Below are positions 1 through 37,400 of a stretch of 64,000 nt of DNA, piece after piece. Position 1 is the first letter of the stretch, and the number at the start of each line of letters is the position of its first letter. Below the pieces are notes generated by a model that saw only the letters and a list, made by a program, of their open reading frames with translations, did not search any database and had not been told where the DNA came from. Source of the stretch: an uncultured archaeon (GTDB lineage: Archaea > Asgardarchaeota > Thorarchaeia > Thorarchaeales > Thorarchaeaceae); contig CAZSWP010000014.1 of NCBI GenBank assembly GCA_964610875.1, positions 1-64,000 on the forward strand, in the 5' to 3' direction. Both the position numbers and the translations under genes were made by a program.

Positions 1-2
1 CC

Positions 3-824
3 TACCAGTTAATCAGCCAGGCAGAGGAATATTATGCCATACCCCGCGATATTTACCGTTATCTCGCAGGCAAAGATAACGAGGGATTAACATTCAGCGG
101 AACAAGTGACTACGATATAAAAGATCGATATTCTGCTTCAGACGATATGTATCATGAAGGGCATTCCATCAATGCTTTTCTCGGTTGGGAAGTGAACCCT
201 TCCCTGAAATTGGGAATGAAAGCAGGAAAATCTCGTATGCCTTTAGATGCTCGCGGTACATACTCAGCTGAGTTGAAGGATGAAGTTCGAATTGAACTTG
301 AAGAGATCGGTTTGATTGAGAAATCCGAGTATCCTGAAGTAAGCTCAGTTGATGTGAAAGAAATTCTATCGAGTATGGATTATGCTGTCATGGGAGATGA
401 TATTAAACATTCCTCTATCAAAAGCGACAAGATATCTGTAGGTGCTATAAGGGGTTTGAAAAATGGGTCTCTTGGCCATATCTTCGTTGGACTCATGACA
501 ACTCCAAGGATTGGACATGAGGCGCTATCAGTAATTTTGGAACCAAATCTAGCAGTCCGTCCAAGTAGCATCATGCTACCCACGCGAACAATCAAGTCTC
601 TAAGACAGGCTTCGCTATTCTATGGTCCAGTGCAATCCGGTGCTGGCAGAGCTTTTGCTAAGATGCTTCAAGAGAAGTTGATTCCGGATGAGTCGATTGA
701 CAAAGAGGTAATTATTCTTGCAATAGATATCAATCTCAACTATCGTAATAGAAGAGAGATTACAAGTTTTACCGAGAAAGCTATATACTCAGCACTTCGC
801 GAACTATGGGGGTATCCTAAATGA
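3..824 (+). CDS. Fae-like domain protein preceded by a DHDPS-family C-terminal remnant (5'-partial; frame open from window edge, first ATG at 147)
   Basis: GHEALSVILEPNLAVRPSSIMLPTRTIK...YGPVQSGAGRAFA...LIP matches the formaldehyde-activating enzyme core. LGMKAGKSRMPL...EVRIELEEIGLI aligns to MGIPVGHARKPL...ELRTCLEDLQLI of the downstream gene. The frame has no stop from nt 3. Confidence 0.7.
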   Translation, partial: YQLISQAEEYYAIPRDIYRYLAGKDNEGLTFSGTSDYDIKDRYSASDDMYHEGHSINAFLGWEVNPSLKLGMKAGKSRMPLDARGTYSAELKDEVRIELEEIGLIEKSEYPEVSSVDVKEILSSMDYAVMGDDIKHSSIKSDKISVGAIRGLKNGSLGHIFVGLMTTPRIGHEALSVILEPNLAVRPSSIMLPTRTIKSLRQASLFYGPVQSGAGRAFAKMLQEKLIPDESIDKEVIILAIDINLNYRNRREITSFTEKAIYSALRELWGYPK

Positions 825-9769: not shown

Positions 9770-10306
9770 TTATTTCAATGCAGTAATTTGCTTATCGAGA
9801 TCTTCCAATTGGGAATCAAGCTCTGCTTCTTTGCCCTTATATTCTTCTTCAGGGATGTAACCACGCATATAATCAAACCTAAGGTCTGTCAATGCAGCCT
9901 TTAGCCTATCCTTCTGTTGCAATAAAAAGTCGAGCTGATCACTGCCTTCTTCTGTAACTTCAGCTGTTACTGATTCAGCTTCTACCTTTGGTGCTGGTTC
10001 CGGCTCAGTTTTGGGAGCTGGTTCAGGTTCTACCTCAGGAGCTGGCTCAGGCCCAGTTTTGACAGATGCAGATGATGGTGCTGTGCTGGCTTTAACACTC
10101 TCCATCTGTTCCATATTTTTCCTAAGAGTATCAATCTGGGCAGCTACCTCAGTAAAGGTTTCATTAATTGTCTGGTTGATAGACATCTTCATTTTTGCAA
10201 AATTCTCAGCGAGCTGATCTGCAAGTTTCTTGGTTTCGGTTACTTTCGCGGCAAATTCTTCTATTGCCTTAAGCTTCTCGAGTACTTCACTAATATCAAA
10301 GGCCAT
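9770..10306 (-). CDS. Coiled-coil protein with Pro/Glu linker and C-terminal helical hairpin (SHOCT- or steadiness-box-like)
   Basis: Heptad N-terminus, (E)PEPAP repeats, LTDLRFDYMRGYIPEEEYKGKEAEL; SD aggtga upstream. Confidence 0.7.
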   Translation of the reverse strand: MAFDISEVLEKLKAIEEFAAKVTETKKLADQLAENFAKMKMSINQTINETFTEVAAQIDTLRKNMEQMESVKASTAPSSASVKTGPEPAPEVEPEPAPKTEPEPAPKVEAESVTAEVTEEGSDQLDFLLQQKDRLKAALTDLRFDYMRGYIPEEEYKGKEAELDSQLEDLDKQITALK

Positions 10307-10414
10307 GAATGGTCACCTATTTTGTAGCCCATCTTGTGATAATTCCTTTGCCACATTCTTAACCTTTGCTATGACTTCATCAAAAGCATAGAAATAATAC
10401 ACGAGTATTATTTT

Positions 10415-11275
10415 CTAGTTATCTGCTGCATCTGATTTGCCCTCAAGGATAGCTCTGCGGATTATTTGAATGAGTCTATCCCTATACGATATATCAATAG
10501 CAACAAGTTCGTAGGTTGCAATACCTAGGATCTGTCCGACTCTTTCTGGAGTTAAAGCCGTAGGTAGGTCCTGTTTGTTGGCAATTCCAATTATCTTAGC
10601 GTCAGGAACTTCCTCCTTTACGAGTGAAACAAGTTTCTTACTCCTTAGAACATTCTCAAGCGTGCTGTCTGTAACAATAACCACTACTTGTGCATTGGCA
10701 ATCATCTTTGCCCACAAAATGCTAAATCGGGACTGTCCTGCTAAATCCCATAAAACAATATTTGCATTCTCAACTTCTTCAGGTAATTTTTTGATACTAA
10801 CACCAATTGTTGGATCATGTACCAAGGGTAAAGTTTCTCCTCTTAGAAGATGTAGAGTTGTTGTTTTTCCGACACCTGCAAAACCGAGAATGGCTACCTT
10901 GACCATTGTGACAGCAATTTCATCAACTTTGGCATCAAATCCATCAAGTGGTTGTCTGGCGCGCGCAAGTTGTAGAAAATCTCGTAGAAATATATCCATG
11001 AGCTGACCCATTTTCTCTTCTATTTGTGCAGAATCATCTGCTTTATCAGCTATGAAGATGAATGTGAAATCTTCCTTTAAAGTATAGAAGAATCTAGATG
11101 CTGCAAGATTCATGTACTCGATTTTTTCATCTAAATCAACTGTGTTAAGAAAATCTGCCAAATTTACCAGGAATTCAACGAAACTCTGTTTTGTTTCAAC
11201 TTCTGCATACTCCTTTGTAAAGATTATTTCTCCTGATTTTTCAAGTATGTAGATACTTCGAATCAAATCAATCAC
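10415..11275 (-). CDS. Longin-domain/small Ras-superfamily (Arf/Rab-like) GTPase fusion
   Basis: N-terminal IRSIYILEKSGEIIF...FIFIADKADD longin pattern. G1 GFAGVGKT, G2 PTIG, G3 WDLAGQ, G4 ANKQD. Overlaps the upstream gene. Confidence 0.88.
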   Translation of the reverse strand: MIDLIRSIYILEKSGEIIFTKEYAEVETKQSFVEFLVNLADFLNTVDLDEKIEYMNLAASRFFYTLKEDFTFIFIADKADDSAQIEEKMGQLMDIFLRDFLQLARARQPLDGFDAKVDEIAVTMVKVAILGFAGVGKTTTLHLLRGETLPLVHDPTIGVSIKKLPEEVENANIVLWDLAGQSRFSILWAKMIANAQVVVIVTDSTLENVLRSKKLVSLVKEEVPDAKIIGIANKQDLPTALTPERVGQILGIATYELVAIDISYRDRLIQIIRRAILEGKSDAADN

Positions 11276-12374
11276 TCCAGTTCTCTACAAGGAGATCCAG
11301 ATATCTTCCTGCGGTTTGCGGTGTTAATTCCTTATCAACAATCTTCCGAGATACTATATCTAACACGTATTCTGGCATGAATGTATCCATTCTTGGGTCT
11401 GTTAATAATGCCCAGAGCTTATCATGTTCGAAATATGCTGTTATTCTATTGTCTTGTAATTCCCATAACGATTTTGTTATAGCTCCTTTTGGTAGTGAGG
11501 TTATTGTAGAAATTTGTTCAATTGTGCGAGGTTGATCTCTCAAACAATCGAGTACTTGATAGTTTAAGGCTCCTGTAAGAACTCTTGCAATTCTTTCTCT
11601 ATCTTCTACAATAGGTGAGTTTGGATCATCAACTGGAATTGTGGGATTGTAACCTTTGTTAGGGGGTGGAGGTGAGAAGAATGTTTTTACATATTCTCGA
11701 TATTGTTCTCGGATTGAAAGGTCGAGCTCTTCTGTTTTCTTAATAGAATTTACAGGCGGCTCTCGATATCCAAAAACATCCTTGATTAAGAAAACAGTTT
11801 CCTTAGTTTTTCCGACTAACTCAACTTTCACAATTCCTGCTCGAATAAGGGGTCGCATTGCCTCTCGAATATCGACATTATCACTTTGCACTTCTTTTTT
11901 GAGCCATAATGCAAGTTGTGCTGCAGTTTGTACTGCTTCCTTTTGTAGTTTTTCCAGAACTAATGCCGTTGAAGGAGTGACAAATGATTCAGCAACAATC
12001 TGCTCTTCATTAGGTAGAGGCAGAATGCTCTTCTTTTTGAGTATCTCTCCTAAATCTACAATCTCGGGGTCTAGCTTGACCAATTCAAGAATTAGCCGGC
12101 TCATGCCTTTTGATACTTCTAGAATGTCTTCTGGAGATGTAGTCCTTTGCAAACAGAAACATACCAAATGTCCCGGGTGATTGTGCGAAGAGAATGTAAG
12201 GATACGCAGATTATCTATTTCCGTGAAGGACACATCCTCCTTCTTTCCTTTCTCATGATTATAATAAATGGTATTGAGAATTTTTTCGTTTAACGATAGA
12301 GTTAATGGAAACCTTTTCTCGACTAGGAATCCCTGATAATCATCAAGCAGTATTACAAAGATAGACTCTATCAC
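11268..12374 (-). CDS. uDENN/longin-like N-terminal domain plus two winged-helix-like domains
   Basis: SIFVILLDDYQGFLVEKRFP resembles the uDENN F..x.G..l...yP start. AMRPLIRAGIVKVE and TIEQISTITSLPKGAITKSLWEL are wHTH-like. Confidence 0.6.
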   Translation of the reverse strand: MIESIFVILLDDYQGFLVEKRFPLTLSLNEKILNTIYYNHEKGKKEDVSFTEIDNLRILTFSSHNHPGHLVCFCLQRTTSPEDILEVSKGMSRLILELVKLDPEIVDLGEILKKKSILPLPNEEQIVAESFVTPSTALVLEKLQKEAVQTAAQLALWLKKEVQSDNVDIREAMRPLIRAGIVKVELVGKTKETVFLIKDVFGYREPPVNSIKKTEELDLSIREQYREYVKTFFSPPPPNKGYNPTIPVDDPNSPIVEDRERIARVLTGALNYQVLDCLRDQPRTIEQISTITSLPKGAITKSLWELQDNRITAYFEHDKLWALLTDPRMDTFMPEYVLDIVSRKIVDKELTPQTAGRYLDLLVENWSD

Positions 12375-12432
12375 ATAGAAGCCCCATTCATTCGTTTCAG
12401 GAATAATGATAAATCTTTGTCTCTAATATTCG

Positions 12433-12771
12433 TTATGTGTTCGTAAAATGTTTTAGGATAACTACGAATCAGTCATCATTGAATATCCAACAATCTTCAC
12501 ATATGATTTCTGCACATATTTCATAAGTGCCAATTATTTGCAAATGATTAACTAATTTTGATTCAGTGACGAATCTACTATGCTCATAACAAAAAAGAGC
12601 ACCACAGTGTGAACATTGATATTTTGCTTCCTGTTCACATCTCGAGCATATTTTTTGTCTTCTCACGCTTTGCTGTTGTTTCTCCATATTTCTACAAGAT
12701 GAGTCCTTACAAAAACCAATTCCTTTGTACTTCTCACATCTAGAACAAAATGGGTCTAAGAATGGATTCAT
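12433..12771 (-). pseudogene. Cys-rich zinc-finger protein, probably decaying
   Basis: CSRC, C...C, CSRC...CSHC...FCYEH (B-box/AN1-like). In the last finger GTYEIC lacks an expected Cys, and TGA at 12469 is followed by FVVILKH in frame. Confidence 0.4.
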
Positions 12772-12841
12772 TTTTTCAATGGTATACTCCTCGTATAATG
12801 AATAGCGCCAAGAATGATTAGAAAATGCTTCTCTAGAAAGT

Positions 12842-15166
12842 ATGAAAAGGCTTCCCTTCAAATCTCAGGACTGGGAGTCATTAATGGATTTGGATCGAAC
12901 TGACCTCTATGTTCCTAGTTTTGCTGTAGTGGATATAAAGTCGGGCTCTGGACTCCAGATGACTCAAGCCCTGCCAAATGACTACACTTTAGCTTCAATT
13001 ACCTTACGTGCCATGGAGTTGAAAAATGGTGAGGATATGGAGTTTCTACTGAAGGTCTACTCCCCAGTCCGTCTTTTTCAAAACACTTCATTGGATGATT
13101 TATTTGCCTTTGATATGTTAGGTTCTGTTTCTTCAAAATATTCAAGGATCTCTTCTTCAAAAATATTTGAACCACCTCCAGATTCTAGTGAATTATTAGA
13201 CCATGGAAGGAGCTTACGTGCGTTCCTTGTAAATGAAATCAATTCTCCGTCAACAAATGTTGTTGGTCTGATATCAAATCCACTCAACCAGTCCATACAG
13301 GAATTACTAAAGTGGCCAACACTTTCGACTTTGGAGTCGTATGCTGTTATAATCGATGGTATATTAGATAATGAAATTATTGAAAGCGAAGCAAAATCAT
13401 TGGTTTCAACAAGTGATAGATTAAGTAATTATGAGTCGAAGATTCCAGGTATTGCAGACTCATATTTTGAACTAGTTGAAAGAAGGATTTCATATCTAGA
13501 AGAATCCCAATCCGGTAAGATATCAAGACTTGAACAAAGGATTGAGAAAATTGGTATTGATCTGGAGGAAATAGAATCAAGACTAAAAACATCAAAAAGT
13601 AGTGACCTTCTCAAAATTAGAGATGCGCGACGGAGTGCACTACAGCGAGATATTGCCAGAAAAGATGCATTGAAACTAGATATCGAAACTGAATCTGCTG
13701 AATTACTTGAAATTGCGCACGAAATCAAATCATTGGCAGCGTCTTTACTCAATAAATTAGACACAATTTCTTCTCAAATTGAAAGGCTGAGGCTCGATTC
13801 TATAGGAAGAATCACTAATGATAAGGATTTGACTCTTCTAATTCCATTCATTCTTGCGGGATACTCAAAGAAGGGTCGCCTAAGAGTTGAGGCATTTCCT
13901 CCCTCAATGATGTTAGATTTAACCGAAAAAGTTGGCATACGGCGAGATTTTGTTGATTCGCTCAAAGATGCTCTACCATATGTCGAACCCATTACCAAAT
14001 CAATTACTAACCTAGCTAATAATGATGTAACTTTTAGGAGGTTCCTAAGAGAGCAATCAAAGAAACGAAATTTGCTCTCCGAAACTTCTGCGAGAGCTCT
14101 GATACTTGCTGGATTAGACCTTCTTGTTGCTGATGCAATTGTTAAGGAGTCTATGGCTTCTGAGCTAAAGGACTTCGTGAATCAGATACCTGCCGTTCGC
14201 ATAGAAAGAAAAACAAAAACTATTCCAATCACAGCAACCGCAGATGAGATTAGCAATGTTACATTCATAGTTACTGATCAGACTGGACATGCTATTAGTA
14301 ATGTACGCTTAGATCTAGGTTTAATTGAACTTGTAACCGATAATCGCGGACGTGCATCTATTCAGTTGCCACGTAGCAATTATGATGCCAAACTAGAAGC
14401 TGCTGGCTATCAAGAAGAAGGGATTGAGTTCTCCCTTACTCGTTCTGGAGATTTGGTTGTACCTGTTATTCTTCAAGCACTATCTCATGAAGAGAAATTG
14501 TCACACTCACTTGATGAACTGGTAGGGAGAGCAAAAAGGATTGATCAGATCAAATCCAGACTCCAAGAGGCCTTTGACATGCATGGTGAAACGATAATCA
14601 ACATCCCTGCATATAGAACGGTACTCTCACAATTACTAAAAGAACTCGGCTATGACCCTGAGAGTTGGATTGCTGATGCTACTACCAAAAAAGGAATGAT
14701 GAAACGTCTATTAAAAAGGGATGAACGTAAAGATGGAATCAGACGAGATTTACTCTGGATTGCTGAACACTCCAAAGACACTGGTGGCATGATGCTAATC
14801 TCAGAAATTCTTGTACGACTCGATGAGAAGGGTTGGGCCACAAATCCCAATGAGATTGAAGCCTTACTAAATGAAATGATTGCTGAAGGTCTAATAGAAG
14901 GCATTTCGGGTCTTGAGAATGGCGCTCGAGTGGTCACATTTATCCCTGTTGAATTGACCGATGATCCTAGACGAATTCTCTCTCTTGCCTCAAAGAATGA
15001 TGGTAAACTGACACTTGAGGATGCAATGGTATCCTATGAGTGGTCTGAAGAGCGTGCAAAGAAAGCATTGGATTTACTTGTTGAAAATGGAGTTGCGAAG
15101 ATACAAAAGAGATATTCGCGTTCCACTGCATATTGGTTTCCTGGACTTCGAAGTCGAAAGAAATAA
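12842..15166 (+). CDS. Large multidomain protein: coiled coil + Ig/carboxypeptidase-regulatory-like domain + C-terminal ESCRT-II Vps22/EAP30 domain
   Basis: The last ~210 aa (HGETI..IPAYR...LGYDP...KKG...GGMMLISE...PVELTDD...ILSLA...G...EWSEERAKKALDLLVENG...YWFPGL) follow the SNF8/Vps22 pattern. VTFIVTDQTGHAISNV...TDNRG...EAAGY is an Ig-like beta-sandwich. Confidence 0.8.
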   Translation: MKRLPFKSQDWESLMDLDRTDLYVPSFAVVDIKSGSGLQMTQALPNDYTLASITLRAMELKNGEDMEFLLKVYSPVRLFQNTSLDDLFAFDMLGSVSSKYSRISSSKIFEPPPDSSELLDHGRSLRAFLVNEINSPSTNVVGLISNPLNQSIQELLKWPTLSTLESYAVIIDGILDNEIIESEAKSLVSTSDRLSNYESKIPGIADSYFELVERRISYLEESQSGKISRLEQRIEKIGIDLEEIESRLKTSKSSDLLKIRDARRSALQRDIARKDALKLDIETESAELLEIAHEIKSLAASLLNKLDTISSQIERLRLDSIGRITNDKDLTLLIPFILAGYSKKGRLRVEAFPPSMMLDLTEKVGIRRDFVDSLKDALPYVEPITKSITNLANNDVTFRRFLREQSKKRNLLSETSARALILAGLDLLVADAIVKESMASELKDFVNQIPAVRIERKTKTIPITATADEISNVTFIVTDQTGHAISNVRLDLGLIELVTDNRGRASIQLPRSNYDAKLEAAGYQEEGIEFSLTRSGDLVVPVILQALSHEEKLSHSLDELVGRAKRIDQIKSRLQEAFDMHGETIINIPAYRTVLSQLLKELGYDPESWIADATTKKGMMKRLLKRDERKDGIRRDLLWIAEHSKDTGGMMLISEILVRLDEKGWATNPNEIEALLNEMIAEGLIEGISGLENGARVVTFIPVELTDDPRRILSLASKNDGKLTLEDAMVSYEWSEERAKKALDLLVENGVAKIQKRYSRSTAYWFPGLRSRKK

Positions 15167-25085: not shown

Positions 25086-25413
25086 AGCAATTTCGGCTTG
25101 CTCATTAATAACTAGTAAAACTATCCGCAGGTATGTACAACGTATGTATATCTATTGTTTTGTTTCGATTGCTTTCTGGTTGCTTGAGTAGTTAGTCTCA
25201 GGTCTCTTATGTGAATGGAGAATGTGGTGTATTGTTAGTAATTCATACATGTTCCAAAAAATCGGCAGCTCTGTCAACACATAGAAAGAGTCTGCCCAAC
25301 AATGATTATTATACACTCCCTATCACTTTCACTACTAGACGTGAGACCATATCTTACACCACTTGTGTGTTGAGGAAAGGTTCGCAACCAGAAATGTATC
25401 GAGGTCAGTCCAA

Positions 25414-28400
25414 ATGAAACGACTCAGTATTATTGCTGTACTATTCATACTTGCATTCATGCTTCCAATGACAACAACGCTACCTGTTGTTACAAATAAT
25501 CCAAATCAAGAAACAATTACTGAACAAGATGACATGAAAAGCAGGTATGCCGTTTCTGACATATCCTCTGGAGGAGGTATGACTCTACCTGTCACAATGA
25601 CGGGTACGTTGACCAATACATATGATGGCCAAATGGTCATTGATTCATCAGATTCAGGTGAAACTACAATAACAACGACTGATGGCTGGACTGGTTCAAA
25701 TCTCGATTCTAGTATTAATGACCTTTCGCTGACAATTGATAATACTCTAGAGAATGGTAAACTCGATGATTATCATAATGAGAAATGGCTCATTAGCGGC
25801 TATGAAAGCGAAGATGTGGGAGTTCCCAATTCATGGACGCTGACCAAAGACATCTCAGGTGGCGGTTCAACACATCCGCATTACGGAACATTTGAACTAA
25901 ACCGTTTTGCTGGCTCAGGCTATCAGAATTCAGAAGGGTGGCGTTTTGATGCGGATTGGAGTAGTGGAACAAATATTGGCGCAGGGGATACTATCTACAT
26001 TAGCCAGATGGTTTCTTTGCCATATAGAGACATCCAATCTGCAACACTCTCATTTTACTATAACGTTGATTCAGCATCCTCAATGCGTGATGACGTGTTT
26101 GTATTCGTAAGAATTGCAGGATATGAAACCGAGTTTCATGTATTCGAGTCTGGGGATACAACCAGTTCTTGGTTACAGACATCTGTTTCACTGACCAGCG
26201 GACAACTAAACACAATTTCTCTTCCTGATTCTGTTCTTGTAGAGATTGGAATTGCTACTGACCTCTCTGGCTTTCAATCAAATTCTCGCACCTACCATGT
26301 GTATCTTGATGAAATCCAGCTTTCGACAGATGTACGTCCATTCCCCGAGCAGGTAGGATTGAAAGCAAATGGGACATTGGTGCAAGGAGCAATTGAAGGC
26401 AGTATCTACAATTATGTTCCAGATGATTCAAATCGGGATGCCTACGATGATAATACCAATGGAATAGATCTCAACGGATACAACAATAATGGTCAGTTGG
26501 ATGTTGGGATTTGGAGTAATGATGGAACTTGGCCAAATGCTTTTACATTTCAAGTCGGTATGCAGTTTCCTCTCACAATCCCACAAGGTGCTGCAATTAC
26601 TTCTGCTTGGGTTGAAGTTGAAGCGGCAACTTCCTCAAATACTCCTGATATGCGTATCTATATTGCTGGAGAGGATACATCATCTCAACCTATTACTAAT
26701 TTCACATCAGGTACACCTCATATGGAAGACAGATACAATTGGGTCGACACAAGTATTGATTGGGATGTTTCTGGATGGACTTCTCCTGTCACGATTCGTC
26801 AAAAGACTCCAGATCTATCAGGTCTGATTCAAGAGATAGTGTCATCTAGCTCTTGGAATGAAACGTATTATGTCTGTGTGATGCTTGATTACATGTATTC
26901 ATCAAGCAATCAAGCCTACAATACAATCAAAGGCTCATCAAATTATGCACAGAATGAACTCGCACGTCTCTTTGTGGAGTATATGATCCCTCTCCCTGAG
27001 GATGAAGTAACAACATTTGCATATGAAAAGGATATAACAATCGACCAGTCGATGGTCGCCGGTCCTCTAACTGATTTTCCTGTGATGATTAATATAACCG
27101 ATAGCGACCTAAAATCCAAAGCACAATCTGATGGAGATGATATTGCATTCAGTATCGATGGAAAAGCAGTCGATTTCGAAATTGAATACTATGACCCCGA
27201 ATATAGCGTATCTGAAGCTCACCTAGTCGCGTGGGTAAAAGTACCATATCTCTCAAGTTCGAGTGATACAATAATTACGATGCATTATGGAAATCCTGAT
27301 GCTCGACCTATGAGTTCAACGGCCGTTTGGGATGGCTATGAAACCGTACACCATCTCAATCACGATCCGACGGGTGTTACTTACGATAGTACTGCAAACA
27401 ATCATGATGGTACATCTTATGGCTCGATGACGAGTGATGATTTAACTACTGGATTGGTTGATGGTGCAGTTGATTTTGATGGAAGCGATGATGTAATTAG
27501 CATAGGTCAAATAGAAACTGATTCGTGGAATTCATTTACTCAGAGTATCTGGGTATACAGAGATACTGCAACTGACTGTCGTGTCTTTTCAAAATCTTAT
27601 ACTACATCAGCAAATCAACACATTCTCTCGACTCGTATAGATACAAATAATGTTCTTACTGTTCGACTATGGACTGACGGAACTGGTGGTTCTGGAGCGT
27701 CTTACAGTACTGGTGCTACTGTTTCATTGAATCAATGGCACCATATAGTCTGGTCTTGGGATGCTTCTACTGGTAATGTTATTGTATACGTAGATGGTAA
27801 TCTTGCATATAGCACGACTCATGATGGAGATACGATTTATAATGCAGATGAGATGTTCACGATTGGTAATGTATATGTTGAAGCAGCTAGGAATACCAAT
27901 GGCACGCTTGATGAGGTGAGGTTGACCCAGAGTGTATTAACTGAAGATTGGATTGATACTGAGTATAACAACCATTTGAATCCATCATCCTACATATCTG
28001 TTGGTTCTGAGAGGTCTGTTCGTGATACCTGGAGTGATGATGATCAAGCAAAACTTGTGATGAGCACAACCTCTCCTGACCCTGTAACACTTGACATAAT
28101 GATGACTATGGATATAGAGGGTTCAGGTCAATCCCTCGATGAGAATATGGAACCCGGTTCAACTTACTACATGACAAATGGTAGTGCCATTGTTGATTGG
28201 GTGGCGCATGTCCTCATTTCACCTCCTGCTGAAGCAACTTCAATGATGGCTGAAATTGCGTACCCAATGACTGAGTGGAACCCCACTAAAATTCTCGACC
28301 CCTTGAGCATCGAGCTCACATACGGAACTGATTGGACATTCGATGGTGGTATCATAAGCATCTCTCTCAATACAGCTGGTATATGGGGCGTGTACGAACT

Positions 28401-31400
28401 ACAATTCCAGAGTTGGAACTATGTTGAGAATGCACTACTGGGTCACACTGGACTCTCACTTGCAGAAACGGACACTTATGACATTGGCGACTCGATGAAA
28501 GTGAAAGTTACAACTCCATGGATTACAGATGCGCGGGTTGGAATGATTCTAACAGACCCATCTGGCACTGAATGGTATACTGCTTTCAACACCACTACTG
28601 GTTCGGCATCTCACGAGATTCCCTCTTTCAAGTACAGGAAGACCATAACAGTGGAATCCGATTATGTAGCTGCAGACGTCGATAATTTTCCATTCTTCAT
28701 CAGTATTCTTGATACAGATCTCTTTGATACCAGTAAGGTTCAATCAGATGGTGATGACATCCTATTCATTCAGAACGGTCAAATACTATCACACGAGATT
28801 ACGTCGTTTATTCAGAATTTCGATGGTTCTCGGGCAAGACTTCAAGCTTGGATTGCAGCGAATCTCTCTAGTACTGTAGACACACCAATAACAATGTACT
28901 ATGGGAATCCTGTTGTTGGGTCTCAGGAGAGTGTTGGTAATCTCTGGTCAGAGCCATCCTACGAGGGTGTTTGGCATTTGGAAGAAGCTGCAACTGCTGG
29001 ACAAACATCAGCAATTCATTATGACTCCACGACAACAGATGCAGATGGTAATCAGAATGGAAATGCAAGGAATACAGGTAGAGCAGGATATGCTCAACAG
29101 TTTGATGGTACAAATGACCAGATTGTTGTCAATGCTTCATTAGGTCCTAGTCCCCCTGCTGATGCAACAATCTCTGGTTGGTTCCGTCTTGACAACTCCT
29201 TCAATGATCTCTCATCAACATCACAATTGATTGTTTCAAAATACTACTCTGATTATCACGATATGCACATAGCTCTTGTGGGGCAGGACTATGGAGGTTC
29301 TAATGCTGAATACGGTGCATTGGGCTTTAAAGTTGAAAACGACCCGAATTGGCTATACAAATACACTACAATCACATCATGGGCAGCAAATACATGGTAT
29401 CATTTTGCATGCTTTATTGATTCCGATAATCCTTCTAATCACAAAATCTACATTGATGGTGTCGATCGAACAAGCACAACATCTGGAGGTTCATCTTCAT
29501 ATGCAAATATCTCCTATGCTGGTGATTTGCAATTTGGAGGTGGAGTTGCTGATTCTCAAGTTGATAATAGATGGCTAGATGGTAGAATGGATGAGATGCG
29601 TATATCATCTACATCTAGGTCAACTGGATGGCTCAGAACAGAGTATCTGAATCTGTATAATCTTAATTCATTCGTTTCGGTAGGATCTGAAAACCAACGA
29701 ACATCTCCCGAAGCCACATTCACAAAGACAATTACTAGTGATTACAATGCTGGTCTTTGGACTCTAACCACATATTTCAACGATACAGGAACAACTGTCA
29801 CAAATGCAACTGGAATATATGAACGGAATTTCATTGTTCAACATGATAGCAGCCTTTCGCTTATTTCCCCGACAGATGCAATTTCTGACAAAGTTGCAGT
29901 TGAAGTTGCAGGCAATCAGTTGATGCTCGAAGTTGAGCTAACCGATGATGTTACTTCCAATGGAATTACAGGAGCAGAGGTCACTATCAACTGGACGGTA
30001 TCAGATGTTGCTACTGAAGTCACTCTAGATGAATACGATGATGGGCGATATGGAAAAGTCCTTGATACGGACGATTTGGGTCATAACCAAAGATGGAGAA
30101 TCAATATCGGATCATATCATCCTTACTACAATAACGCAACAGATTATTTCGATCTTGATTTGTATCACGAAACCAAATTGACATACAAGCATGTTGAAAC
30201 AACGCCTACTGGGTTTGACTTCACTGCAACCCTTGTGTATTGGGATGTATATGACAATGTACCAATAACAGGCGCATCCATTTCATTTGATAATGGTACG
30301 GCTATTACTCCGGATGCTGAAGGCAGTGGTGAATACAATATCTCACTGAGTAGTAGTAGTTACAATTATGGCGACCATATTTTCACATTCAATGCAACCA
30401 AGTCTTCGTCTTATCTTTTGGTAGGACAGTCTGATGTGATATTTACACTAAGGAAGCACTATACTGCTGTTTCTGTTACGGGTGATCTTCTAACACCGTA
30501 TGGTGAAACGACAGAGCTAACTATTATTCTGATTGACTTGGACACAGGTACATCTGTACCGATAGGTGATGTTGCATCCTTTACATTTACACCTGATGTT
30601 GAAACATCTGAGGGTGAAACTAGTCCAATCAGTGATTATATCTATACAATGGGGACTGATGATTGGTCTGTTAAGACAGAGGGAGTTACACTATCTGTGT
30701 CATTAGCTGGTTCGCAGTATTATGACCCAGATGATTATAGTTTTGATATAACAATAAGAAAACACTACACAGCACTATCTATCAATGCGAATCTAACAAC
30801 TCCCTACGGATTTACAACTGATATCTCCGTTATATTGATAGACTTGGACACAGGCGGAACTGTTGCAATTGGAAATGTGTATAACATTACTTTCGACCCA
30901 ACTGGTTATGGCTCCGATTCAGAAACAGATCCTATACCTGATTATGATTTCACTCTTGCTACAAGCTCGTGGTCAGTAGGAACAGTGAGTGTCACACTGA
31001 TAGTAGATATGACCGGCTCTATCTATAATAACCCCGATGACTATGTCTTTGAGATTATCATACGAAAACGTATGACATCAATGTCGGTTAGTGGTGATTT
31101 TGTCACTCCTTTTGGCGAGAGCACCGATGTTACTGTGACGATTACAGACTTGGACACTGGTTCCACTGTAACGATTGGAAATGTGTATAACATTACTTTC
31201 GACCCAACTGGTTACACTTCCTATTCAGAAACGGATCCTATATCCGATTATGAATTTACACTTGACACGAGCTCGTGGTCAGTAGGAACAGTGAGTGTCA
31301 CACTGATAGTAGATATGACAGGTTCGAATTACGATAGTCCCGATAACTATGTCTTCTCAATACAAATCAGAAAACACTATACTTCAGTGACGGTTATTGG

Positions 31401-34400
31401 CAACCTCACAACTCCACATGGATTCACAACAGATCTAACTGTTATCCTGACTGACTTGGACACTGGTTCCACTGTAACGATTGGAAATGTGTATAACATT
31501 ACTTTCGACCCAACTGGTTACACTTCCTATTCAGAAACGGATCCTATATCCGATTATGAATTTACACTTGACACGAGCTCGTGGTCAGTAGGAACAGTGA
31601 GTGTCATACTAATTGTTGATATGGCTGGATCTGACTATGTAAATCCAACAAATTATGCATTTAACATTATTATTCGTAAACACTTTACATCAGTGAGTAT
31701 TTCTGGAGATTTCATAACTCCATTTGGAGAGAATACAACTGTTACCATATCGCTCATTGATACTGACACTGGCGGAACTGTAGCGACAACAGATGTCGTA
31801 TCTTGGACATTTACACCAGATTCCAATCCTGTCAATTCAGAATCTTCTCCATCTGATTACGAATTCGAACTGGACACTGATGGCTGGGTTGTTTCTACCG
31901 ATTCAATTACTTTCTCAGTAGACCTTTCAGGCTCTATCTATATTGACCCTGATGACTTTGTATTCTCTGTCACTATCCGAAAGCATTACACTTCAGTTAC
32001 TGTTACAGGTGACTTGACAACTCCATATGGTAATGATACCACAGTTACAGTCGTCATTACAGACCTTGATACTGCGACAACAATTGGCTTTGGAGCTGTT
32101 AACTATCTAAACTTCACATGGACTGGAGGCTATAATGATACAGCATCAGCACTCATGACGGTTCTACAGACTAATACTTGGAATGTTGGCTCAACGACAG
32201 TGACACTTGATGTGTCAATGATCGGGTCTAACTATTTTGACCCAACAGATTACGACTTTTCAGTAACAATTACCCCATTAGAAATCACACTCTATCATGA
32301 ACCTACTGATTTGATATTCCCACAAGAAGATGATTTTGAACTAGTCCTTAGAGTTAATGTCAGCGAACCTGGTCAGTACCATGGTGATATTGTACCTGAT
32401 CTAGTGCAAGCAGAATTCACAGTACGAAATAGCACATACACTTACACAATCACACTCTATGAAATCGGTACCAGCACTGGTAGATATAATCTAACTATCA
32501 GCTGGGTTAACAATTTCTTTGAGGGTGACTATACAATAACTATCAGAGTCAATCCTGTTGACTCAAGATACAAATCTGATTCTTTAGTTGTCACCTTCAA
32601 CTATCGACCTGCACGAAGCGAATTATCTTCTCCCGACCGTGCTGCTGTAACACCATTTGAAACAAACTACACGATATCTCTCAACTTCACAGATATTGAC
32701 CGAGATAGTGGTATCTCGGGAGCCACAATTACAATCGATGGAGTTACCAGTTATGTCGTCTATGATTTAGGTGGAGGTCTCTACGAAGTTTCAATCAATG
32801 TTGATGGCATGTCCAAAGGCGAACATCTCTATGATGTTACTGCTGATGCTGATGGATACGAGGCGCAGACTATTGAATTCAAGGTCATAATACGTATTGC
32901 TTACACCTATGCTATCCCAACTACTGGAGCGTTAGATGTACCTGTTGGCAATTCGCCTGTATTCTATGTCGATTATTGGGACATCGACCATGATGAAGCA
33001 GTTACTGGAGCTACTGTCACAGATAACTGGACTGCACGTGTAGATATTGCATGGACTGGTTCGAGGTATAAAGTTACATTCAATGTCCCCGATAACACAA
33101 CGCTTGGAACCTATCTCGTGATGTTCACCTTCTCCAAGGGTGAGAACTATCAGGAAGGACAATTCAATATCTCTGTAGTTGTCCGAACTCACAATACAGA
33201 TTTCCGACTCGTAAGCGCGATTGAACCCACAAGCTTCAATGGTCAAATCAATATCTCTGTATTCTATGGGGATCTTGACAGTGGAGGCGCTGGTATCGCT
33301 GCAAGCAATGTGACTCATGCTGTATGGAATGGAACAAATTGGGTTACTTCATCATTTGAGAATGATACAAGCCTAGGTGTGGGATATTATCTGATAGCAA
33401 TTCCTGCATCACAATTTGGAGGACTCGGGCTTCAAAACTTCACAGTTTACTTCAATTGGACTGGTTCAGTATACAAATATCAAAACAAGACCCTGATTGC
33501 ATCAGTGAATATAATTGGAGAAGACTCCAAGCTAACACTTCTCCTATCCTCTGAACCAACACCGTACTTGGATAATATGACATACACCTTCTTCTATGCT
33601 GAACTCTATAGTGGTGATGGCATCACTAATACTAGTAGTCCGTATGGAGATGGCAATGTTCACATCTCTGTGAGTTTCCAAGGTCTCTCGGTTGACCTAT
33701 CACAAGTTGATATCTGGGAGATAGATTCTACAAACAATCCTGGAGAATACAGAATCCGATTCGACACTGAGATATTTTCGGATATTGGTGTCATATACAT
33801 GAACGTATTCATCAATTGGTCTAAGGGTGTAGAACCCTTCTACACAAATCGGACTGATACGATAACTGTGAGAATTCTCGCAAGAGATACGCAGTTAGCT
33901 GTTGTGCCTGCATCAGCCACTCCTTACGCTGAAAACGCAACCTTCTCCTTTACATTTGAGGATTCGTTATTGAATACAGAGATAGCGAATGCTAGCAATA
34001 TGATGATCACACTGAGCTTATCATATTATAATCTGACCTATAATGAAACCACGTTAGTATTCACGGTTTACTTCAATACGAGCCAATTTGGCGAAACAAT
34101 TGGTCAGAAGTCATTTACGTTGGGAGTGGAATGGGTTGGAGCACCCTTCTATGCAAATAAGACTGGTAGGATTCTCTATGTTACAGTTACAACACGTGAC
34201 ACCGTTGTTGATTTCCAAGCTCCTGCTCCCACACCATATTTGAACAATGTGACTTTCACAGTGACTTGGACTGATGTAACTGGTGCCTCGACATCAGGTA
34301 TTGAACTGGCATCTCTGATTCTTTATGATGGTGTAACTGCAATCGATACTATCTATTATAATGTCACTGAAATTGGGAATGGTGAATATAGCATCGAATT

Positions 34401-37400
34401 CAATACCACATATTATACCACACCTGGAACTTACTCCCTAAAACTTGAAATTTCGTCAACTAAAGTCTATTACGCGACTAAGACTACTACTCGAGATTTG
34501 ATTGTTCAATTTAGGAATTCTATATTGACAACAGACCCCATTGCAGATGTTGCATATAATTCTTCAATTATCATACAGGCATACTTCCAAGACTCCTTGA
34601 CAGGCGCGAACATTGTCAACAATTCCGACATTGTTTTCACAATTGAAACCGGCAGTAACTGGATATTCACATGTGAATGGCAGCCTTCTCTGGAGTATTA
34701 CCTCATAACCATAGAAACCTATAATCAAGCTGGACTTGAGATTGGTGTTGATTATAATCTCCGATTAAGAATGACCTACGCATATCAGAGTCCCTTCTAT
34801 GACTATGATGACGTAATTGTAACATATGAGATTAGGTACAGAGATTCAACTCTCGATAGAGTACAATCTCCAGTACAGACACCTTACCTTGACACTATTA
34901 CATTCTCTGTGCTTTACACTGATGCAGATGGAAACTCAGGGATTACAGGTGCAACTATTTACATCTCAGAAGGTGGCACCTTACTTACCTCCGGAGTCGA
35001 TTATACATTTAGTGATGATCTCGATGGATATTATACAATAAATGTTGACACCACAGCACTTGATGGTCTAGGAAGTACAAATGTCAGAATCTATGCAAAC
35101 TGGACTGGCACTCCCTACCACGACAACGCCTCACTCAGCATTAATCTTGTAGTCACTCGACGTGTCACAGATATTGTCGTCGTGTCTACACCAAGTAGAA
35201 CTAGCTATAATGAGAATGTTACTTTTGTAGTAACATTCAATGATCTGGGAACTGGAAGTACTTTATCAGTAACAAAGAATTTACTAACACTGTATATAGG
35301 CACATCAAGTCTGTTCTCCAGTGACTGGTCCTTTACCGAGATTTCTACTGATACATATGAGGTTCAAGTACTCTCAACAAAATTGACAACTGTTCTCGCC
35401 TCCGGGTTGAATGTAACACTACATGTTGATTGGCCGGATTCACCAAACTACTATCAAGATGATTCCACATCTGTTTCAGTAACTATCATAGCTAGAACTA
35501 CTGCAGTCACGATAGAGCGACCTGCAAGTACAGCTTATGGTGAGAATGCAACCCTTGAATTGACATTTATTGATACAACTGAAACCCCTGAAGAAGTAAT
35601 TGACTCTCCATTAGTTGATAGATCAACAAATCTAACCGAAACACCAACTTGGACTTATTCTGCTGGAACTGGAATCTGGACCCTGTCCTTTGACACTGCA
35701 CAATTTGGTGAAATTGGAGAAATGGTATTTCACATCAATGTGACATGGGTAGGTTCACCATTCTATGCGAACAAAACCCTACGAATTGTATACGTCGTAA
35801 TTATAGAACGCCAAACACAGGTTGAGTTTGATTCTCCCACACCAACTCCATATGGCGACAATGTCAATTTCACGATTGAATATATTGATATTGCTGGTGC
35901 TACTGATACTGGTATTGATGATGCTACACTCACTCTATATTACCTTGGCAGTCCAATCAACTCACTATATTATGATTATACAAAGCAAGGTAATGGAGTT
36001 TTTGAAGTCGAATTCAATTCAAGTTTCTTCGCAAATCCTGACTCTTACGATTTAAACGTGAGTCTTGTATATGATGGCTTAGGATACAAAGCGGATGGTT
36101 ATGCTATCAGATCTCTTCGTGTACTATATCGTAGTACTTTAGCTTCTGCTGAACCAGCTGGGAGTATTGGATATGCGACCATATTTACTATCGAAGTGTC
36201 ATTCATTGATTCATTGACACTTGCTGTGGTAGGTAATGGGTCGGGTTATGTGACTTTCACAATTACTAATAACACAGAAACATGGGAGTTCAATATCACT
36301 TGGAATGGTGCGGATGAAACTTATACACTCTCTGTGGATACTGACGGCCATCCTGGTTTGGAACTGAATAAACCATATCGCCTTTACTTTGAGATGTCTT
36401 ATGATAATGTTGTTCCATTCTATCGATCTGATGATTCATATATCTCATTCACAATCAGACAAAGGACTTCAATATTGGATATTACGGAACCGCCGACTCC
36501 TACTTCGTATCTTGAATTTGCTGAGGTCACAATCTATTATCTCGATACAGATGAAAATCAAGGGATAAGTGGTTCATCAATTGTCGTATCCACAACTGTT
36601 CCTCTAACATTGAATGTAGACTATTTTGTCACTCCCGGTGATCCGGGATACTATCTCATTCAACTAAACACTTCAGTATGGGGTGCACTTGGATCGTTCA
36701 CAGTCACTATCACTATTACTGGTGATTGGTCTGATGCTATAGCTCCATATCATGCTGATGCAAGTAGAAATACGACCATTAGAGTGATTCGAAGAACAAC
36801 AAATGTCGAGATTCTTTCTCCACCTTCAAACACAATGTATCTAGATAATCTTACTCTTACATTTGAGTACGTTGACACAACGAATTTTGATAGTCCAATG
36901 CCAATTTCAATAACAAGTGATGATATCGTTATATATGCAGATGGTGCCCCACTTGGACCTACAGACTTTGTATTAACTCCCTTTGGTTCTGCTTTCATAT
37001 TAAACATTAATTCCACTGTTTTTGGTGAGTTCTTGGTTACAAATCTAAATCTGACAATAGTCGTTGATTGGGACGATGGGACTTCGCCGTTCTATGAGGA
37101 TGACCAAACCTATATTCGTGTTTCCACTACAAAACGAAATTTGGCAATAACACTCGGACAAATCGAAACAACTCCTTATGGAGATAATATGACTATCGAA
37201 TTCACTGTTGAGGATAGCAATAGACTATCCGGTGTAGGTGATTTGATAATTCTCTTTGAGTGTACTAACTTAACACTCATAGAAGGGTTCAATTTCTGGA
37301 TCACAGAAGGAACTGGAGTGAATGAGGGTCTTTACACAATCAATGTTGACACTGGTCAATTTCTAGGTGATGTTGGTAATTATCAGTATACACTTAGAGT

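Follow-up and report, generated by a model that had tools for sequence, protein, structure and literature searches.

The locus described here raises the question of why an archaeal ESCRT-II-type subunit should carry a long N-terminal extension and be encoded apart from the other ESCRT genes, and with which proteins it is likely to work. In the published description, Asgard ESCRT-II consists of a Vps22 homodimer and Vps25 and lacks Vps36, and Asgard ESCRT genes (Vps25, Vps4 and ESCRT-III) are usually encoded together (PMC9192718). Many odd domain fusions are recorded in a survey of archaeal ESCRT, in which we came across no mention of the present one (PMC10936438). The gene lies in a window of 64,000 nucleotides (the whole stretch of DNA analysed) from a member of the Thorarchaeaceae, in an open reading frame at 12842..15166 on the forward strand that encodes 774 aa. 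Its true start is likely Met15, at nt 12884, because homologues and the database gene call all begin at the MDLD... methionine; we refer to the product as long Vps22. The spacer in front of this start (Table 1) presumably carries promoters. A full Vps22 unit joined to the probable adaptor of an unstudied set of ATP-dependent amide ligase genes would provide a testable handle on the role of the ligase, and touches on what could feed ESCRT in a ubiquitin-free lineage.

Domain composition and distribution of long Vps22

The C-terminal region of the protein is a complete Vps22/SNF8 unit and a real extra copy of an ESCRT-II subunit. Residues 555-769 align with the full length of human SNF8 in phmmer searches (2zme_A, E 2.5e-10; 3cuq_A, 3.9e-10), yeast Vps22 (1u5t_A) matches the same region at E 0.0017, and the translation carries LGYDP, GGMM, PVEL..D, W.EERA...L.LL...G and YWFP. 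The AlphaFold model (pLDDT 83 overall, 67-84 for the Vps22 part with AF2) finds its best Foldseek matches in SNF8/Vps22 structures at E 3e-7 to 1e-5, namely 3cuq_A (3e-7), 2zme_A and 1u5t_A (1.3e-5). VIA comparison of the Vps22 part gave 1w7p_A (Z 10.9 over 137 residues) and 3cuq_A (Z 10.3); the superposition on 1w7p_A has a high rmsd because the angle between the two winged helices differs. The SNF8 alignment, the motifs and the Foldseek ranking uphold the assignment to Vps22/SNF8 over the whole length of the unit that a sequence-only reading of the locus had made. The same reading had named the EAP30 model as a check; this Pfam model (PF04157) scores 26.4 bits on the protein against a cut-off of 26.8, rises to 29.1 bits in a six-frame search of the genome, and matches 21 of 23 members of the long Vps22 family (best E 3.1e-19). 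A further EAP30 match, on contig C3, was considered as a third paralogue and rejected, being the winged helix at an MCM end.

Table 1. Coordinates of long Vps22, its domains and its divergent neighbours in the window
Feature	Position	Strand	Basis or remark
Long Vps22 paralogue gene	12884..15166	+	760 aa from Met15; open frame starts 12842
Head domain (residues 1-145), alpha/beta	12884..13318	+	pLDDT 85-94 in whole model
Antiparallel coiled-coil hairpin (helices 163-236, 240-302)	13370..13789	+	Model; PDB matches coiled coil only
Middle domain (beta-hairpin 316-343 and four helices 365-434)	13829..14185	+	Model, profile matches
Transthyretin-like / CarboxypepD_reg beta-sandwich (residues 456-529)	14249..14470	+	Pfam, Foldseek, VIA
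Vps22-type N-terminal helical region (residues 535-633)	14486..14782	+	Aligns with SNF8 residues 28-124; model
Tandem winged helices WH1 (636-686) and WH2 (694-751)	14789..15136	+	SNF8 alignment, model, Foldseek, VIA
Intergenic region, 112 nt, A/T-rich, divergent	12772..12883	.	Between zinc-ribbon gene and long Vps22 gene
Zinc-ribbon gene, ~100 aa, Cys-rich, probable start Met31	12469..12771	-	Neighbour, not part of system
unk368 / longin-Arf-like GTPase / coiled-coil operon	9770..12374	-	Neighbour, not part of system

The extension had been described as coiled-coil and Ig. A coiled coil is indeed present, as one antiparallel hairpin of ~140 residues; the supposed Ig part is instead a transthyretin-like CarboxypepD_reg sandwich, which superposes on 5aq0_B and 9hfj_A by VIA (Z 12.3, rmsd 1.4-1.7 over 78 residues) and is matched by PF13620 in 18 of 23 family members. 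Two globular parts absent from that description are also found in the extension. Folded alone, the head gave a weak model (pLDDT only 69.5) with no structural match above Z 3.2, and a longin fold, suspected from the order of strands and helices, was dropped on these grounds; Pfam returned no match to a GLUE/PH domain or zinc fingers anywhere in the extension. Within the family alignment, P11, P31 and G128 of the head are invariant.

Head, hairpin and middle domain, the first ~445 residues, are treated here as one N-module. Whole-model VIA and PDB profile searches for its relatives returned coiled-coil matches only, and the ESM Atlas only unnamed archaeal clusters. A profile of residues 1-445 with full-length relatives (A4) matches stand-alone proteins of ~540 aa (E 1e-8 to 7e-28) over profile positions ~45-446, and hhalign of A4 with profile A5 of the f15 proteins gave 97.6% (E 4.5e-12) over the middle domain. 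These matches define an unnamed Asgard head-hairpin family, for which neither a Pfam model nor a solved relative was found; its members are stand-alone proteins of ~525-550 aa, or of ~650-708 aa where an N-terminal longin is present. They are homologous to residues ~45-445 of long Vps22 and differ from it, in all the stand-alone and longin-fused relatives from other Asgard families, by having neither the beta-sandwich nor the Vps22 unit. Long Vps22 originated by fusion of the N-module, the transthyretin-like beta-sandwich and a complete Vps22 unit. The neighbours of the stand-alone N-module genes showed no shared theme.

Exhaustive HMMER searching of 1.84 billion proteins yielded ~22 full-length representatives of long Vps22; such a search was required, a whole-protein word-index search and a search with the C-terminal part against shorter proteins having recovered almost nothing. 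Of 85 Thorarchaeaceae genomes, 74-76 carry the gene, in one copy each, and it occurs outside this family in a member of a sister family (G311) and in Ca. Asgardarchaeum abyssi, the Vps22 unit of the fusion being conserved since before the Thorarchaeia and Asgardarchaeia split. Long Vps22 and canonical Thorarchaeota Vps22 form separate clades (SH-aLRT 99 and 100), which, with its conservation across the genome family, bears out the earlier proposal of a second, Vps22-like ESCRT-II-type subunit that has an N-terminal arm of its own. The paralogue is accessory, and dispensable because it has been lost in several genera.

Gene neighbourhood and the GTPase operon

The gene is an orphan among ESCRT genes within the window, as had been noted. 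Elsewhere in the same genome, contig C1 encodes Vps25 and canonical Vps22, and Snf7 is found both there and on C5; the ordinary Vps22-Vps25-Vps4-Snf7 cluster is kept on a different contig from long Vps22, and none of 20 syntenic loci compared has ESCRT genes beside long Vps22.

From the divergent arrangement in the window, the sequence-only reading had proposed that long Vps22 and the zinc-ribbon, unk368, longin-GTPase and coiled-coil genes may form one GTPase-controlled, ubiquitin-independent system of ESCRT recruitment. Most of the Thorarchaeaceae loci that were compared share this arrangement; in G311 the GTPase gene and the coiled-coil gene are found within 4 kb, and an Arf-like GTPase is encoded ~3 kb upstream of long Vps22 in Asgardarchaeum and, for two other families, at ~2-3 kb from stand-alone N-module genes. 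With only 27 Arf-like GTPases in the 3.75 Mb of the genome, such proximity is not trivial. Against this, adjacency within the Thorarchaeaceae belongs to a syntenic block of ~15 genes, including GluRS and hydantoinase, and therefore carries little weight; a nearby GTPase was not seen at most of 16 stand-alone N-module loci; and the linkage fails in G368, which has long Vps22 and no unk368 orthologue, and in Asgardarchaeia, where the divergent neighbour of the fusion is an unrelated gene of ~840 aa and the upstream genes of Asgardarchaeum differ. Moreover, long Vps22 has been cleanly deleted from six genomes that are 95-99% complete (G315, G320, G322, G387, G388 and G389), and the zinc-ribbon/unk368/longin-GTPase/coiled-coil genes are still in place in all six, the zinc-ribbon gene being retained in G315 and G320 among them. 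Because of these deletion genomes, an obligate joint system with the GTPase operon is largely refuted, and we hold the proposed recruitment system to be highly improbable; a tempting but unsupported GTPase-ESCRT model is thereby removed. The GTPase link that remains is weak: in families f14 and f15, relatives of the N-module carry a fused longin homologous to the N-terminus of the GTPase in the window (E 2e-7).

Association with a carboxylate-amine ligase gene set

Gene order and co-loss tie long Vps22 not to its GTPase neighbours but to another gene set, with which it probably works. The set comprises a YbdK/GCS2-type ATP-dependent carboxylate-amine ligase, of the superfamily to which the Pup ligase PafA also belongs, a fast-evolving small partner encoded just upstream of the ligase, and a CDC48N-vWA protein, and is grouped here as ligase, pseudo-hydrolase and vWA. 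The catalytic domain of the ligase resembles YbdK/GCS2 enzymes (TIGR02050, PF04107; PDB 1r8g, 1tt4), including their conserved metal/ATP motifs; the protein differs from them in its length of 1141 aa, in an Ig-like arm of ~650 aa and in its score of 55 bits against a family cut-off of 176. Three lineages conserve the motifs GIEVE, GEHHH, NSP and GTIELR, and to judge from these the ligase looks active. Neither long Vps22, nor the small partner, nor the ligase has transmembrane segments, and the partner gene set of the head-hairpin protein is cytoplasmic; a hydrophobic stretch near the ligase C-terminus was rejected as a membrane anchor, since it is not conserved and holds charged residues.

A tight operon of long Vps22, a gene of ~220 aa and a ligase of ~1140 aa occurs in G311 and at two loci of Asgardarchaeia, one from Asgardarchaeum and the other on a metagenome contig; the ligases are 37% identical (E 6e-110), and in the two Asgardarchaeia loci the CDC48N-vWA gene adjoins the ligase (domains scanned on L060). 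In family f15 (G115 and G116), an N-module homologue of 506-508 aa (hhalign 97.6%, E 4.5e-12) lies 9-98 nt upstream of a ligase-Ig paralogue. Within the Thorarchaeaceae themselves, the ligase, small partner and CDC48N-vWA genes are found ~60 kb from long Vps22; in the present genome the ligase is at L059:1441-4866, the small partner at L059:4859-5545 and the CDC48N-vWA gene at C5:48430-49683. Three further candidates for homology around these operons came to nothing: the ~220-aa operon gene of G311 is no relative of the downstream YdjM-like gene, homology was not detectable between the Thorarchaeota small partner and the middle gene of the Asgardarchaeia operon, and proteins of 385-425 aa upstream of the first ligase paralogue (f15/f16) match the N-module through a coiled coil only (26% probability).

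The six clean-deletion genomes all lack a ligase orthologue, G315 having only a remnant (708 aa, 36% identical). The vWA gene is likewise absent from 6/6, and the small partner from all five that were searched for it; all 33 remaining genomes with a completeness of 90% or more have the vWA gene. Controls were retained: DUF92 (which flanks the ligase), canonical Vps22 and Vps25 in the five deletion genomes searched (not G388), and unk368 of the GTPase operon in all six. Every apparent case of a ligase without the fusion proved to be an unassembled locus. Related genomes are not independent samples in these counts; the losses are spread over four genera, and in two of these some members have kept every one of the genes, so at least three independent events have occurred. 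In G323 the fusion survives as a very divergent copy, and neither its ligase and vWA gene nor the flanking gene of the ligase was found. The pairing of N-module and ligase is not universal, because N-module relatives are present in the ligase-free families f9 and f14 and the ligase family, found in 219 of 332 Asgard genomes, is far wider than the fusion.

The Vps22 unit and its possible link to ESCRT

We consider it probable that long Vps22 is the scaffold of the ligase module, possibly linking that module to ESCRT. The N-module would partner the ligase, the small partner and the CDC48N-vWA protein, and the Vps22 end would present an ESCRT-II-type surface that could either pair with canonical Vps22 or bind Vps25 as eukaryotic Vps36 does. 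The ligase or its products might thereby be brought to the membrane-remodelling machinery, in what appears to be a lineage without ubiquitin (PF00240 was not found in this genome, which is 95% complete). If both ends truly bridge, the protein would represent a second, independent solution to the marking of cargo for membrane remodelling. A bolder form of the idea, which we regard as having only a slim chance of being right, is that in ubiquitin-less Thorarchaeia and Asgardarchaeia the Ig-arm YbdK-type ligase places a glutamate-type or other amide tag on proteins or lipids, assisted by the hydrolase-fold partner and the vWA docking protein, and that long Vps22 is the adaptor that passes the cargo so tagged on to ESCRT-II/III. 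Close relatives of eukaryotes would then have a tagging route into the ESCRT pathway that does not use ubiquitin.

Eukaryotic Vps36 is the obvious point of comparison, since it too is a paralogue of Vps22 whose N-terminal arm serves for targeting (PMC10936438), and the design is analogous. Long Vps22 might then be a Vps36 analogue only, forming a heterodimer with canonical Vps22; in the resulting asymmetric ESCRT-II the long arm would target membranes or cargo, and only shared ecology or history would tie the gene to the ligase set. No Vps36 is known from Asgard archaea (PMC9192718), and the full Vps22 unit includes the helical region that the steadiness-box-fused canonical Thorarchaeota Vps22 lacks (PMC10936438). 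We nevertheless think this unlikely: in the absence of a functional tie, neither the co-loss of three separate loci nor the existence of operons in three lineages is easily explained, and the canonical ESCRT-II genes are unchanged where long Vps22 has been lost. Unlike Vps36, moreover, long Vps22 has no GLUE/PH domain or zinc fingers detectable by Pfam or with the weak isolated head model; its Foldseek match to Vps36 (2zme_B, E 1.8e-4) ranks below Vps22, and nothing that we saw favours a common origin of the two extensions.

Long Vps22 can also be compared with canonical Vps22. In its C-terminal 225 residues, comprising the helical region and two winged helices, long Vps22 is alike to Vps22/SNF8/EAP30 (PF04157; 3cuq_A, 2zme_A, 1u5t_A) and to the ~240-aa canonical Asgard Vps22 (asCOG cog.002769); it differs from the latter in its threefold length, ~530 residues of other domains preceding the Vps22 unit, in its separate clade and dispensability, in lying away from Vps25, Vps4 and ESCRT-III, and at one position of WH2. 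Another Thorarchaeota fusion, the steadiness-box-fused Vps22, is described by Makarova et al. 2024 (PMC10936438). In the present genome this protein is encoded inside the ESCRT cluster (L001:1354-2130, 258 aa; Vps25 is at L001:2139-2867), and all the genomes checked for it have retained it, namely five of the six without the long form. The winged-helix part of long Vps22 is 35.5% identical to this canonical Vps22, and similarity is limited to the winged helices. At the WH2 position aligned with D214 of yeast Vps22 and the matching Asp of human SNF8, most members of the long family have Gln, whereas canonical Thorarchaeota Vps22 retains Asp; we take the yeast position to be a contact with Vps25, and a literature check gave no mention of a contact between Vps22 D214 and Vps25 R83.

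Loss of this acidic residue would suit a different role, in which the Vps22-like end serves the ligase complex as a general-purpose winged-helix module, for dimerisation or for binding nucleic acids, with no working link to ESCRT; we judge this doubtful, if possible, and long Vps22 would then clearly exemplify the reuse of an ESCRT domain in another setting. At no locus is the gene encoded beside ESCRT genes, tandem winged helices are common scaffolds (many unrelated winged-helix proteins match at Z 9-10), and in most Asgard lineages the ligase set manages with no Vps22 domain at all. Against such reuse, the similarity to Vps22 covers the whole unit including its helical region, the unit has been conserved from before the divergence of Thorarchaeia and Asgardarchaeia, and it is nearer to eukaryotic SNF8 than generic winged-helix proteins are.

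Gene, Vps22 similarity and domain architecture

The open reading frame at 12842-15166 on the forward strand encodes 774 residues. Met15 is where every homologue begins, as does the database gene call P0002 (760 aa), so the gene most likely spans 12884-15166; we call its product long Vps22. Human SNF8/Vps22 aligns end to end with residues 555-769 of the open reading frame (2zme_A, E 2.5e-10; 3cuq_A, E 3.9e-10), and yeast Vps22 (1u5t_A) aligns to the same residues at E 0.0017. The Pfam EAP30 model scores 26.4 bits on long Vps22, slightly below its cut-off of 26.8, reaches 29.1 bits, above the cut-off, in a six-frame genome search, and matches 21 of the 23 aligned homologues (best E 3.1e-19). The similarity is real and far above chance.

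An AlphaFold model with 23 homologues as input (mean pLDDT 83) completes the domain architecture now established (see table). Its top Foldseek matches in the PDB are SNF8/Vps22 (E 3e-7 to 1.3e-5), with Vps36 next (1.8e-4), bearing out the sequence-only reading of a Vps22/SNF8 domain at the C-terminal end. Matches to 5aq0_B and 9hfj_A (Z 12.3, rmsd 1.4-1.7 across 78 residues) mark the beta-sandwich as transthyretin-like. Head, hairpin and middle domain make up a head-hairpin module, residues ~1-445. Modelled in isolation, the head is poor (pLDDT 69.5) and has no structural match (best Z 3.2), and a PDB search with a profile of residues 1-445 returned coiled coils only; folding of the head probably depends on the remainder of the module.

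Locations of long Vps22 domains (residues of the 760-aa protein, AlphaFold model) and of associated genes
Feature	Location	Strand	Details
Alpha/beta head	1-145		
Antiparallel hairpin	163-236 and 240-302		two ~70-residue helices
Middle domain	316-434		beta-hairpin and four helices
Beta-sandwich	456-529		
Vps22 helical region	535-633		
Two winged helices	636-686 and 694-751		
Arf-like GTPase	window 10415-11275	-	N-terminal ~110-aa longin-like domain; longin homology E 2e-7
Zinc-ribbon ORF	window 12469-12861	-	weak B-box/zf-HIT matches; Cys-rich, ~100 aa from Met31
1141-aa YbdK-type ligase with Ig arm, and 228-aa upstream partner	genome of the window (G000), contig C5; L059:1441-5545		
CDC48N-vWA gene	G000, C5:48430-49683		~11 kb from ligase
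Longin-fused head-hairpin proteins of two other Asgard families	L063:4128-6080, L069:7955-10066		

Family range, origin and canonical ESCRT-II

HMMER, run exhaustively against 1.84 billion representatives, recovered ~22 full-length relatives of 765-805 aa, among them a group that has diverged to ~20% identity. A survey of 400 Asgard genomes, one per species, established the range: long Vps22 is single-copy in 74-76 of the 85 Thorarchaeaceae genomes, and is present also in the sole genome of a sister family (G311) and in one genome of another class, Candidatus Asgardarchaeum abyssi. The profile of residues 1-445 detects weaker yet clear relatives in many further Asgard families, either stand-alone (~525-550 aa) or with an extra N-terminal longin domain (~650-708 aa). 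All of these relatives lack the sandwich and the Vps22 part, and long Vps22 is therefore a fusion of an older Asgard head-hairpin module with a sandwich and a Vps22 unit. In the single-contig genome G368 (L052 / L083, G368:C1 about 2158330-2159700) long Vps22 shows no similarity to the first ~100 residues of the family.

The usual cluster of a 258-aa canonical Vps22, Vps25 and Vps4, with Snf7 nearby, lies on contig C1 of the same genome, and a second Snf7 on contig C5. A search of this genome found no ubiquitin, which fits its reported apparent absence from Thorarchaeota (PMC9192718). Long and canonical Vps22 have the winged helices alone in common (35.5% identity, E 1.7e-21); according to the PMC10936438 supplement, the canonical form has a steadiness box where the helical region would be. 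The same supplement lists two EAP30/Vps22 family genes (cog.002769) for Heimdallarchaeota AB_125, so the rule of one Vps22/36-like gene in each Asgard genome does not strictly hold in general. A maximum-likelihood tree places Thorarchaeota long forms and canonical Thorarchaeota Vps22 in separate clades (SH-aLRT 99 and 100) on a backbone without resolution, consistent with the earlier proposal of a Vps22 distinct from the usual one. Canonical Vps22 is encoded in the ESCRT cluster, whereas long Vps22 is never encoded with ESCRT genes. At the position of yeast Vps22 D214, which we take to be a Vps25-contacting residue, most long Vps22 members carry Gln and the canonical Thorarchaeota protein Asp; both the Gln and the lack of ESCRT gene neighbours count against canonical Vps25 contact.

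Independence from the GTPase operon

Synteny within Thorarchaeaceae extends over the entire block in 20 loci from 14 genera: two upstream genes, then eS25-HhH, coiled-coil, longin-GTPase, unk368, zinc-ribbon, long Vps22, a gene for a YdjM-like membrane protein, GluRS and finally hydantoinase B. The adjacency of long Vps22 to the GTPase operon (coiled-coil, longin-GTPase and unk368) therefore says little. Gene loss provided the decisive test: six genomes of 95-99% completeness (G315, G320, G322, G387, G388 and G389) have unk368 and lack long Vps22, which alone is cleanly excised at their loci between the YdjM and zinc-ribbon/unk368 genes. Conversely, G368 has long Vps22 with no unk368 orthologue and no GTPase operon nearby, and in Asgardarchaeia a different gene lies upstream. 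Operon and long Vps22 are separable both ways, which establishes their independence. The sequence-only reading, correct in its description of the protein, had also proposed a joint GTPase-controlled system; the linkage on which this relied holds as synteny within the family and is uncoupled in the six deletion genomes and G368, leaving the joint system unsupported.

A hint of a GTPase link does persist between domain families: the N-terminal domain of the GTPase is homologous to the longin that head-hairpin relatives from two other families carry as a fusion, and at a few loci an Arf-like GTPase lies at most 2-3 kb away, to be set against a genome-wide density of 27 such genes in 3.75 Mb. The zinc-ribbon gene probably starts at Met31 (nt 12771); in G311 its homologue belongs to a 256-aa ORF. 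The gene was not detected in several genera, and its presence is not tied to long Vps22.

Coupling to a carboxylate-amine ligase set

In G311 and two Asgardarchaeia loci, a tight operon opens with long Vps22 and continues with a ~215-240-aa gene and the gene for a ~1140-aa protein; two of these large proteins share 37% identity (E 6e-110). The ~1140-aa protein has as its first ~480 residues a divergent carboxylate-amine ligase of the YbdK/GCS2 type (TIGR02050, E 7e-15 to 3e-18; PDB match 1r8g) which keeps the motifs GIEVE, GEHHH, NSP and GTIELR; beta-sandwich repeats follow, and no transmembrane segment was found in the protein. A CDC48N-vWA gene abuts the ligase in Asgardarchaeia (domains scanned on L060) and completes what we call the ligase set. 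The genome of the window has the ligase and its 228-aa upstream partner on contig C5, and relatives with long contigs have both ~60 kb from long Vps22; the partner shows 20-28% identity even inside its family. A third independent adjacency of head-hairpin module and ligase occurs in family f15, where a ligase-Ig paralogue has a 506-508-aa head-hairpin homologue (hhalign 97.6%, E 4.5e-12) as its immediate upstream neighbour.

The six Thorarchaeaceae genomes with the clean deletion of long Vps22 are also without the ligase orthologue. At the ligase position in G315 (G315:C27:82604-84106, adjoining DUF92) there is a 708-aa protein with only 36% identity to the ligase, which may be a remnant in decay or may have replaced it; this genome has lost long Vps22 together with the small partner and the vWA gene. 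Searches of five of the six did not find the 228-aa gene (as a positive control, it was found beside the ligase in 63 other genomes), and among 40 genomes at least 90% complete the CDC48N-vWA gene is absent from exactly the six and G323. Control genes are kept: all six have unk368, and the five deletion genomes searched for the others have DUF92, which flanks the ligase, as well as canonical Vps22 and Vps25. The losses are distributed over four genera, two of which have members keeping everything, giving at least three independent events.

Four genomes (G312, G347, G385 and G395) have the ligase and apparently no long Vps22; all four also lack unk368, and the flanking YdjM gene is absent or, in G312, cut at a contig end, so the long-Vps22 locus was simply not assembled there. 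In G323 the most divergent long Vps22 is retained, and no ligase, vWA or DUF92 gene was found. The ligase family is far wider (219 of 332 Asgard genomes) and some families have head-hairpin relatives without ligase; the coupling, strong here, is thus not universal.

Gene order and co-loss couple long Vps22 to the ligase set, and the best-supported reading is that it serves as the scaffold for a hitherto unstudied ligase module and bears an ESCRT-II-type end. The head-hairpin module would bind the ligase set, for which the long protein would act as scaffold, and, more speculatively, the Vps22 end might join the set to ESCRT-II/III. Asgard archaea have been described as having Vps22 and Vps25 and no Vps36 (Hatano et al. 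2022, PMC9192718), and ESCRT-II architectures of diverse kinds, along with ESCRT-related proteins of several domains, have been reported (Makarova et al. 2024, PMC10936438); the portions of the latter's text and supplements covered here make no mention of the long Vps22 fusion or of a ligase link, and a literature search found no paper pairing Asgard with carboxylate-amine ligase. Long Vps22 is a real and conserved Vps22 variant, apparently unpublished.

Near other ligase paralogues, a p228-like gene (resembling the 228-aa partner) and a 385-425-aa coiled-coil protein precede the first paralogue in families f15 and f16 (L100, L102, L104); the coiled-coil protein sits where long Vps22 does in G311 and Asgardarchaeia, with coiled-coil similarity only detected. 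The neighbourhood of a 1399-aa paralogue in G117 (L101:448-2019, 12220-13472) holds a 523-aa head-hairpin homologue 4.6 kb off, a small GTPase, and a winged-helix protein of 210 aa that EAP30 matches faintly. Downstream in the window, a 5065-aa open reading frame spans 25363-40560 on the forward strand.
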